64,000 nucleotides of DNA from Schmidtea nova (lineage: Eukaryota), in NCBI GenBank assembly GCA_044892505.1, contig CM097882.1:182900001-182964000 (forward strand). Reading direction: 5' to 3'. Under the pieces are notes generated by a model. The model made no database searches. It was not told where the DNA came from and saw nothing but the letters and a program-made list of their open reading frames with translations. The position numbers and the translations under genes were made by a program. Positions 45,365 to 46,759 of this stretch are shown here, piece after piece. Position 1 is the stretch's first letter. Each line of letters starts with the position of its first letter.

Positions 45365-46759
45365 ATGAATACAGAAGGAAAAGCCGAAGAGCGGATAATC
45401 GAAATTTTGAGAGCCGAGAACAGGAAATGGAGTCAGAGACTCACTTGTGTAAATTGTAAAAACATAATATTGAAACCAAGACAAACCCTATGCGGATGCA
45501 GGGTATTTACCAAATGCATACACGAGTTAAGTATGAAAAGACCACCAGAATGTCCAGAATGCAAAGAAGGACAAATAAAATTCGAAGAAACCGGACCAGA
45601 TAGAGCAACTCAGAGAGAAATCATGAACACGAAAACCGAATGTATAAATCAACCATGTATATGGCAAGGACAAATACGCGATCTCGAGAACCATCTGGAG
45701 AACTGCGAGGAGAAGAGAACTGAATGTAACAAATGCCAACAAAAAATAACTATAAAGAATAAAGAGCAGCACAAAGATGAATGTAAAGAAGAGGAAAGTC
45801 TATGCGAATATTGTGGAACTCGAGAAACGAGGAGAAAGATCGAAGAAGAACACCTGAATGTAAAAGAGGAGAAAGTATGTAGACAATATGTAGGAATATG
45901 TTCAAACGAATGCGAGATAACGGTAGAAGTAAAATTACAAGAACATTGGAAAGTGTGCACGGAGAAACCAAGGGAATGTCCTTATAACAAACAGGGATGT
46001 ATGGAGAAAAGAACGCAACAAACCATGAAACAACATCTGGAGGAAGCATTACTAAAGCATGTGGAAATGACAAACGAAGCAACAAAAGAAACCGAACAAA
46101 CGATCAAAAAATTAGAAAGAGAAATAGAGTCACACAAGATAATGGTAAACCTACTGTTGGAAACCAGAGAGCAATTCGAACTAACACGAGAAAAGATGGA
46201 GAAAAAGATAAAAGCTATCGAAGAATTGGCTAAAGGAATGAAAATCCAGTACAACAAACTCACACAGGATACCGAGGAAAAGCTACCAATAGCACCATAT
46301 GTGTGGAAAGTGACAGATTTTAGAGACAAATTAACAGAGGCCCGAAACATGACAAAAACAGCAGTAATAAGCCCACCATTTTATTTATGGAGAAACGGAG
46401 CTAAAGTGAGATTGAAGCTATACCCAAATGGAGACGGAAGAGGACGGGGAACACATGTGTCAATATTTTTTTCGCTATGTAAAGGAGAATACGACGACCT
46501 AGTAGAATGGCCCTTGAAAGTAGGAGTCATTATAAGAATCAGAAGTGTAAGAAAACCAGTGGAAAAATTCTTTGAGACAGAGAAACATGCGAGTACGAGC
46601 GAGAAACCAACCACAGAATGTGGATTAGCAGCGGGAGAACCGATGTTTATAACGAAAGAAAGCCTATGGGAACGATTATATGCAGACACCCTATACATAG
46701 AAATGGAAAGGAACGAGAAAGCGGATAAAAAAGGATGGTTGACGTTACTAGAGAAGTGA
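45365..46759 (+). CDS. TRAF-family protein (RING, TRAF zinc fingers, coiled coil, MATH/TRAF-C), intronless
   Basis: CVNC..IILKPRQTLCGC RING, PDRATQREI, CIWQG...LENHL.C, YVWKVTDF, SPPFY, LYPNGDGRGRGTHVSIFF...GEYDDLVEWP. Confidence 0.93.
   Translation: MNTEGKAEERIIEILRAENRKWSQRLTCVNCKNIILKPRQTLCGCRVFTKCIHELSMKRPPECPECKEGQIKFEETGPDRATQREIMNTKTECINQPCIWQGQIRDLENHLENCEEKRTECNKCQQKITIKNKEQHKDECKEEESLCEYCGTRETRRKIEEEHLNVKEEKVCRQYVGICSNECEITVEVKLQEHWKVCTEKPRECPYNKQGCMEKRTQQTMKQHLEEALLKHVEMTNEATKETEQTIKKLEREIESHKIMVNLLLETREQFELTREKMEKKIKAIEELAKGMKIQYNKLTQDTEEKLPIAPYVWKVTDFRDKLTEARNMTKTAVISPPFYLWRNGAKVRLKLYPNGDGRGRGTHVSIFFSLCKGEYDDLVEWPLKVGVIIRIRSVRKPVEKFFETEKHASTSEKPTTECGLAAGEPMFITKESLWERLYADTLYIEMERNEKADKKGWLTLLEK

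Follow-up and report, generated by a model that had tools for sequence, protein, structure and literature searches.

Background

Can a retroelement own a complete TRAF gene, and if it does, what would it use it for? The question is raised by a 64,000-nucleotide stretch of the Schmidtea nova genome, here called the window. Within it, a TRAF open reading frame (ORF) lies between the two long terminal repeats (LTRs) of one large element.

TRAF-domain cargo in planarian Burro elements is already in print. Burro1/GYPSM1 and Burro-2 to -4 are listed with a MATH_TRAF_C domain, and a Dugesia tigrina element has this domain in a separate upstream accessory ORF (PMC6431247). Of a TRAF, that source names only the MATH_TRAF_C domain, in ORF1 or in an upstream accessory ORF. 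The window element is unlike this: it carries a whole TRAF, from RING to MATH, as one of four genes arrayed after the polyprotein. Within one genome, six families or more have a complete, constrained TRAF of this kind, which probably goes back to one old capture that was later rearranged.

The literature searched yielded no 3' array that holds an entire TRAF in six families, nor its constraint, nor its kinship with polyprotein MATH domains; the primary Burro1 study, which may already describe the TRAF, and the original Burro descriptions lie outside that coverage. Searches on planarian TRAF function likewise yielded nothing on an element-borne TRAF, and the part of PMC11410931 that was covered mentions neither TRAF nor MATH.

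The host element

The element measures 28,688 bp, has TG...CA ends and is bounded by a 4-bp CATG target duplication. Its LTRs are 99.4% identical, with 18 mismatches and one gap in 3367 columns. The polyprotein is interrupted by a stop codon at 39377-39379, and its frame shifts between 41362 and 41817 and again near 43750-43830. The window copy is a young insertion that already has lesions. Coordinates of the features are given in Table 1.

Table 1 Features of the element, in window positions.
Feature	Position	Strand	Basis
5' LTR, 3367 bp, CATG target duplication before it	23436..26802	+	LTR alignment
Accessory ORF, 153 aa, C-terminal C3HC4_3 (IAP-type) RING	27158..27619	+	Pfam, E 9e-12
Polyprotein region: Gag, weak Ubl and Bcl-2-like parts, fusion glycoprotein (env), PR, RT, RNase H, integrase, ankyrins, FN3-like membrane tail	29837..44791	+	ORFs, Pfam
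3' array gene 1, 118 aa, no known family	44917..45273	+	ORF; dN/dS A vs B 0.11
91-nt spacer: TGTAAATA and acceptor-like TTGTAG (45358-45363), with one base between it and the TRAF ATG	45274..45364	+	Sequence
3' array gene 2, TRAF, 464 aa	45365..46759	+	ORF, Pfam, PDB matches, model
RING, aa 28-66, all-cysteine type, one ligand (residue 48) missing in window copy	45446..45562	+	PDB matches, copy alignment
TRAF-type zinc fingers, about aa 93-232	45641..46060	+	Pfam, alignment, model
Coiled coil, aa 229-301	46049..46267	+	Model
MATH/TRAF-C, aa 312-450	46298..46714	+	Pfam, PDB, fold match
3' array gene 3, split by frame change near 47580; one 353-aa ORF in most copies	46862..47897	+	dN/dS A vs B 0.09
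3' array gene 4, 190 aa, hydrophobic segments, no known family	47980..48552	+	dN/dS A vs B 0.27
3' LTR, then CATG target duplication	48758..52123	+	LTR alignment

The Burro type is recognised by the length, the 3367-bp LTRs, the CATG duplication and the order Gag-env-PR-RT-RH-IN plus ankyrins, which sister copies hold in a single frame over the part read. The stretch from integrase to tail is one open frame in 12/20 copies of the window element's own family (family A), and 11/20 copies of a second one (family B) are open over the part read. Pfam places the fusion glycoprotein upstream of PR-RT-RNase H-integrase, which are followed by the ankyrins. Gag has no Pfam match and was recognised by its CCHC knuckles.

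Burro1-4 and GYPSM1 share the size of about 30 kb, the long LTRs, the ankyrins and the RING (PMC6431247). They are also described with Ubl and Bcl-2-like cargo, for which the window element scores only below threshold. Their single polyprotein, roughly 5000 aa long, has env placed after Gag and before PR, as in the window element (PMC6431247). Burro1/GYPSM1 itself has MATH inside ORF1. The window polyprotein has no MATH by Pfam; another family in the same genome does.

An earlier reading from the letters alone (the sequence-only reading) had proposed a coherent TNF/NF-kB/cell-death toolkit made up of the TRAF with RING, ankyrin, Ubl and Bcl-2-like modules. The RING and the ankyrins pass Pfam. 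The Ubl (E 0.047) and Bcl-2-like (E 0.094) parts of the polyprotein stay below threshold and rest on the literature; the Bcl-2-like region has no PDB match at E 10. Pfam found no BIR in the element to go with the IAP-type RING, whose ORF has a counterpart of 47% identity in a third family (family C).

At its end, the polyprotein (42900-44791, + strand) has repeats of an FN3-like unit, set between a hydrophobic, signal-like segment on one side and a membrane helix with a short tail on the other. The atlas neighbours of this part are FN3 membrane proteins (score 0.90, a weak match), and Fn3_ELFN is a sub-threshold Pfam hit. This tail is possibly receptor-like cargo.

The TRAF gene

The claim that a full TRAF lies inside the LTR boundaries holds up: RING, zinc fingers, coiled coil and MATH domain are all present in one uninterrupted ORF of 464 aa, with the N-terminal RING and TRAF zinc fingers leading into the coiled coil and a C-terminal MATH/TRAF-C domain, as in the TRAF family. 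Pfam finds MATH_2 (E 2.6e-21, aa 312-447) and TRAF-mep_MATH (E 1e-18), as well as zf-TRAF (E 7.7e-5) and Sina_ZnF (E 2.2e-5), these last two each under its own cut-off. No Pfam RING is found on the ORF at E 0.01. In a PDB search, residues 22-151 resemble TRAF6, TRAF5 and TRAF2 over their RING and zinc fingers (best E 2e-10), and the C-terminus compares with TRAF5/3/2. A word-index protein search returned 13 distant TRAFs only.

An AlphaFold model from a 27-row alignment has a mean pLDDT of 88.9; its pTM of 0.44 is what would be expected for an elongated chain. In the model, aa 229-301 form an unbroken helix, and the MATH sandwich has a fold that matches TRAF3/2/1/5 in a structure search (E about 1e-15). 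A trimer model of aa 241-452 scored 0.80, against 0.39 for the best of 3 controls, by a measure whose mark is reached by 21/30 solved pairs and 0/23 single chains. Contacts agree to at least 96% between runs, and pLDDT is at least 84. TRAF trimers being already solved, this predicted assembly speaks for likeness only. Vertebrate TRAF2/3/5 have the MATH fold and the trimer (predicted here) in common with the element protein; they differ in their C3HC4 RING with histidine, and several conserved MATH positions are changed in families A and B.

The window TRAF is 4 codons longer than in 29/29 other family-A copies.

Copies and families

The genome was searched with the MATH domain of each family, and counts are from the best 150 matches per family. 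Family A has at least 86 matches at 96-100%. Family B has at least 150 at 95% or more (150/150 of the matches listed), family C has 147 of the best 150 at 62% or more, and family D has 16 of the best 150 at 68% or more. Together, the four families have at least 399 MATH matches in the genome, intact and broken alike.

For gene order, 20 A matches (every fourth) and 20 B matches (every third) were sampled, both from the search with the family-A domain. The order 118-aa ORF, TRAF, 353-aa ORF, 190-aa ORF is kept in 40/40, so the TRAF is not peculiar to the window copy. In family A, integrase lies upstream and an LTR downstream in 20/20. In family B the ankyrin ORF is matched in 19/20 and integrase in 0/20, because the longer spacing there puts integrase beyond the stretch read.

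The position of the TRAF in its array is kept at 78, 68, 52 and 43% TRAF identity to the window copy. Family C has a TRAF 52% identical to that of A, an RT at 96% and the same array; family D has a TRAF at 43% and again the same array. One copy of each has paired LTRs, of 3.3 and 3.6 kb. The array is also present in family E (one broken copy, TRAF 36%) and family F (two copies, TRAF 67-68%).

A separate, Burro1-type family has at least 150 copies with MATH within a polyprotein of roughly 5000 aa, between Gag and env. In two of these copies, the roughly 8 kb after the polyprotein hold neither a TRAF nor the array. MATH/TRAF counts in planarian genomes and transcriptomes need clearing of element copies: at least 399 standalone and at least 150 polyprotein matches.

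Selection on the TRAF

The sequence-only reading had allowed for a neutrally evolving TRAF. The ratio dN/dS was computed pairwise (Nei-Gojobori), with ranges from a codon bootstrap; pairs are not independent. It is 0.16 within family A, 0.12 in B, 0.12 in C and 0.19 in D, so neutral evolution does not describe the four families. Between A and B it is 0.14 (0.10-0.19). By domain, the same comparison gives 0.13 for the zinc fingers, 0.15 for MATH and 0.21 (0-0.46) for the N-terminus with the RING; dS is nearly saturated in the RING and saturated in the coiled coil.

The TRAF frame is intact at 16/20 A, 18/20 B, 17/18 C (two of which are the same copy) and 8/8 D loci, drawn from the best-scoring matches, a choice that favours intact ones. 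Judged by these substitution patterns, the TRAF is a fixed accessory gene of the element under purifying selection. Such constraint fits selection on the element and selection by the host alike; these data do not separate the two.

Three family-D copies (L101, L112, L114) lack RT, RNase H and integrase, and keep a 449-aa TRAF. These Pol-less copies hold Gag, env, PR and TRAF together.

Some rearranged copies were seen along the way. In the D copies L101, L112, L114 and L134, internal deletions place PR directly before the ankyrins, with the TRAF intact. In the family-C copy L129, PR is fused to MATH, and in L133 about 2.7 kb separate Gag from the array.

RING variants

The RING of the window copy had been flagged for its substitutions, in the motif CGCRVFTKC. 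The motif is there, and its two changes are of different kinds. Cysteine in the usual place of histidine is found in all 14 host frames with a pattern match and in three Dendrocoelum proteins, while the eight alignment rows not of triclad type keep the RING histidine. The idea that the substitutions are specific to the element was therefore rejected. Loss of the ligand at residue 48 is confined to the window copy among 96 distinct element copies; all eight cysteine ligands are kept in 93/96, and 2/96 gave no match. From this distribution, the His-to-Cys change is read as a triclad trait and the ligand loss as a lesion of the window copy. That the loss might mark a sub-lineage was also rejected: of eight further A-type copies, seven keep all eight cysteines and one gave no match.

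The residue before the second RING cysteine is Asn or Lys in families A-C and Ile in family D; in a PDB alignment, it is Ile in TRAF6 and Ala in TRAF2. We take this residue, from structural work, to be an E2 enzyme contact. With Asn or Lys in place of a hydrophobic contact, the TRAF of families A-C is more likely to be an adaptor or decoy than a strong ubiquitin ligase.

Host TRAFs and ancestry

Host loci were sought in the genome with triclad-type TRAFs and PF21355. Matches consist of the dispersed element copies and of host clusters on C2 (about 405-455 Mb), C3 (43.8-43.9 Mb) and C1 (154.6 Mb). Of the 21 host-type loci read, 10 run from RING to MATH in one frame. Four loci in tandem clusters have RING and MATH in separate frames; the remaining ones are split, broken or partial. 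None of the 21 has the accessory array beside it.

The sequence-only reading had stressed that the element TRAF is intronless. As host frames are uninterrupted too, this is no proof of retro-capture.

Of ten related proteins looked up, five carry an organism name. The nearest named full-length relatives are TRAFs of Dugesia japonica and Dendrocoelum lacteum, from which the host is very likely a triclad flatworm. Triclad host TRAFs (D. japonica TRAF2-like A; D. lacteum TRAF-2, -4 and -5) share the length class, the domain order and the all-cysteine RING with the element TRAF, and many host loci share the uninterrupted RING-to-MATH frame. Unlike these shared traits, the sequences are only about 26-33% identical and fall in separate clades. 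Element TRAFs have an A-rich coding bias and hundreds of dispersed copies, whereas host TRAFs sit in clusters. No close host donor was found; the best candidate has about 31% identity.

In a 55-row MATH tree, the domains of families A, B, C, D and E, the polyprotein MATH and P0034, a library protein without known context, form one clade (97/97) with no host gene inside. Nine rows were left out of this tree: five long branches, one truncated row and three near-duplicates. A quick full-length tree has an element clade too (SH-aLRT 97), with element rows of unusual letter make-up and on long branches, so that their grouping may be partly an artefact. Since all the element-borne MATH domains sampled fall in one clade, the tree suggests that they stem from one old capture.

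The gene tree with host TRAFs, which the sequence-only reading had called for, sets element TRAFs apart from host TRAFs. It also bears on the proposal that retroelement carriage fed the host TRAF expansion. For planarians, 99 transcripts with 121 MATH domains have been reported (PMC6109357). The sampled expansion sits in tandem clusters, and none of it is nested in the element clade. Descent of five tandem host genes from families A-D was rejected by an AU test (p 0.005), and a placement of the tandem genes as sister to the whole element clade was not rejected (p 0.22); both groups were named after the tree was seen. In this small sample, the element swells the DNA count of MATH domains without visibly founding host genes, and the reported expansion has its match in host clusters that stem from outside the element families. 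The element TRAFs can thus be told apart from the host tandem expansion, and the proposed contribution is weakened.

Around the host loci, some further observations were made. The C2 cluster at about 405-455 Mb is dense in MATH/TRAF matches and includes arrays with a period of 4-5 kb. Several host-type loci lie near unrelated Gypsy fragments, and L121 has a piece of a family-A LTR about 5 kb away. In the frames of L104, L108, L109 and L111 the first Met is downstream of the RING start; these loci may take their start from an upstream exon or spliced leader, or may be damaged.

Likely expression of the array

A gene 15 kb downstream of the start of the polyprotein is not easily translated from genomic RNA. 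The array genes are on the same strand, and in families A-D and F they lie 73-133 nt apart. In the window spacers, of 82-125 nt each, TGTAAATA occurs 5 times in 400 nt; the 18,316 nt of coding sequence have 0 occurrences. The TRAF ATG is preceded by a YAG at 1-3 nt in 6/6 families, which are not independent draws; among internal ATGs, 14/97 have YAG within the 8 nt upstream. An acceptor-like site is missing at three of the other array starts, two of them in family D and one in F.

Spliced-leader (SL) trans-splicing occurs in flatworms including Schmidtea, where an operon is defined by genes no more than 300 bp apart (PMC12582326). The array genes of families A-D and F are within that limit. 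These features suggest that the array TRAF is likely expressed by splicing: either in cis from an upstream donor, or by poly(A) cleavage and SL trans-splicing. If the latter, this would be an unusual route for expressing accessory genes of a retroelement; one narrow literature search found no paper on SL trans-spliced accessory genes in a retroelement.

What the TRAF may do

Taken together, we somewhat favour the following course of events. A host-type TRAF would have been captured once, long ago, by Burro-type retroelements, and fixed there under selection. It would be translated from a spliced subgenomic RNA and, going by the model, form a trimeric adaptor in cells. This adaptor or decoy would compete with or join host TRAF complexes. 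Where a cell transcribes the element, death signalling and innate-immune signalling would be damped as a result.

The direction of this effect is proposed by analogy with the anti-apoptotic Burro1 IAP, which shields stem cells from caspase-mediated apoptosis (PMC13465017). Expression of the TRAF may be restricted, because SMEDWI-2 keeps Burro1 silent, with de-repression in differentiated tissue (PMC8532177). Families A and B also differ from TRAF3/5 and host TRAFs at several otherwise conserved MATH positions, so the same partners may not be bound.

A bolder version, which we hold to be possible and rather doubtful, makes the array a true operon with polyadenylation and SL trans-splicing. It would supply hundreds of decoy-TRAF templates and, with the IAP-type RING, rewire planarian death and immune signalling. 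The MATH of Burro1-type elements would then be a relocated remnant.

It is also conceivable, and in our view improbable, that the TRAF activates signalling or promotes death, helping element transcription or the release of env-bearing particles. This would follow ISKNV ORF111L, a viral TRAF that binds TRADD and induces caspase-8 apoptosis (PMC3352826), and which by analogy runs opposite to the damping proposal. The best viral matches by fold include iridovirus TRAFs, and a complete RING and zinc-finger region under constraint is more than a bare decoy needs. An inherited element would however gain little by killing the cells that carry it, the co-carried RING is of IAP type, and a weak Bcl-2-like motif is present. 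ISKNV likewise has a captured TRAF on a mobile genome, acting on host death signalling as proposed here for the element; it is a DNA virus of fish, whose TRAF was pro-apoptotic in tests (PMC3352826). Iridovirus TRAF-related proteins are 18-20% identical to the element TRAF, an analogy and not a kinship.

Alternatively, the TRAF could serve the element's own cycle, as a scaffold or ubiquitin adaptor for the processing of polyprotein and membrane protein, for trafficking and for budding, with little effect on host signalling. The place of MATH in the Burro1-type polyprotein, between Gag and env in at least 150 copies, would fit this, as would the Pol-less copies that retain Gag, env, PR and TRAF, and the drift of the A/B MATH surfaces away from host TRAFs. 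Ordinary Gypsy elements, however, replicate without a TRAF, and we think this account unlikely as well.

Slighter is the chance that the constraint is imposed by the host, with expressed copies being working host TRAFs through mutualism or partial domestication. A regeneration role has been reported for Burro1 (PMC13465017). Variants present in one sampled copy only have a low pN/pS, 0.23 in A and 0.18 in B, yet sparse sampling makes inherited changes resemble such singletons. All four array genes are alike constrained between families (0.09-0.27), which is what selection during replication predicts; the young window copy has already lost a RING ligand, and the MATH tree has no host gene nested in the element clade.

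That the TRAF is a neutral passenger, a hitchhiking retrocopy of a host TRAF without function, would suit the lesions of the window copy and the TRAF frames broken in 4/20 A and 2/20 B copies, and is very improbable given dN/dS of 0.12-0.19 in four families and frames that stay open down to 43% identity.

The element TRAF is a defined RNAi target, beside a Burro1 IAP that is tied to regeneration.

Other features of the window

Each LTR contains two ORFs, at 24848-25324 and 25661-26062, with copies at 50169-50645 and 50982-51383. The LTRs of families C and D have two ORFs too. At 12134-13275 (- strand) there are ORFs that resemble these; they may belong to the solo LTR of some related family. 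Between the RING ORF and Gag, the leader (28063-28821) has tandem repeats of 30, 41 and 55 nt.

The element is flanked by a 98%-identical, inverted pair of 2.3-kb DNA-transposon-like units, at 16862-19185 (- strand) and 52795-55117 (+ strand). To its right are the broken remains of an ordinary Gypsy element (56393-60222). The left edge of the window holds pol remains of an LTR element (46-2445), which we take to be BEL/Pao-like. A 575-bp satellite array with an inversion occupies 6350-11999, with long palindromic arms around 10248.
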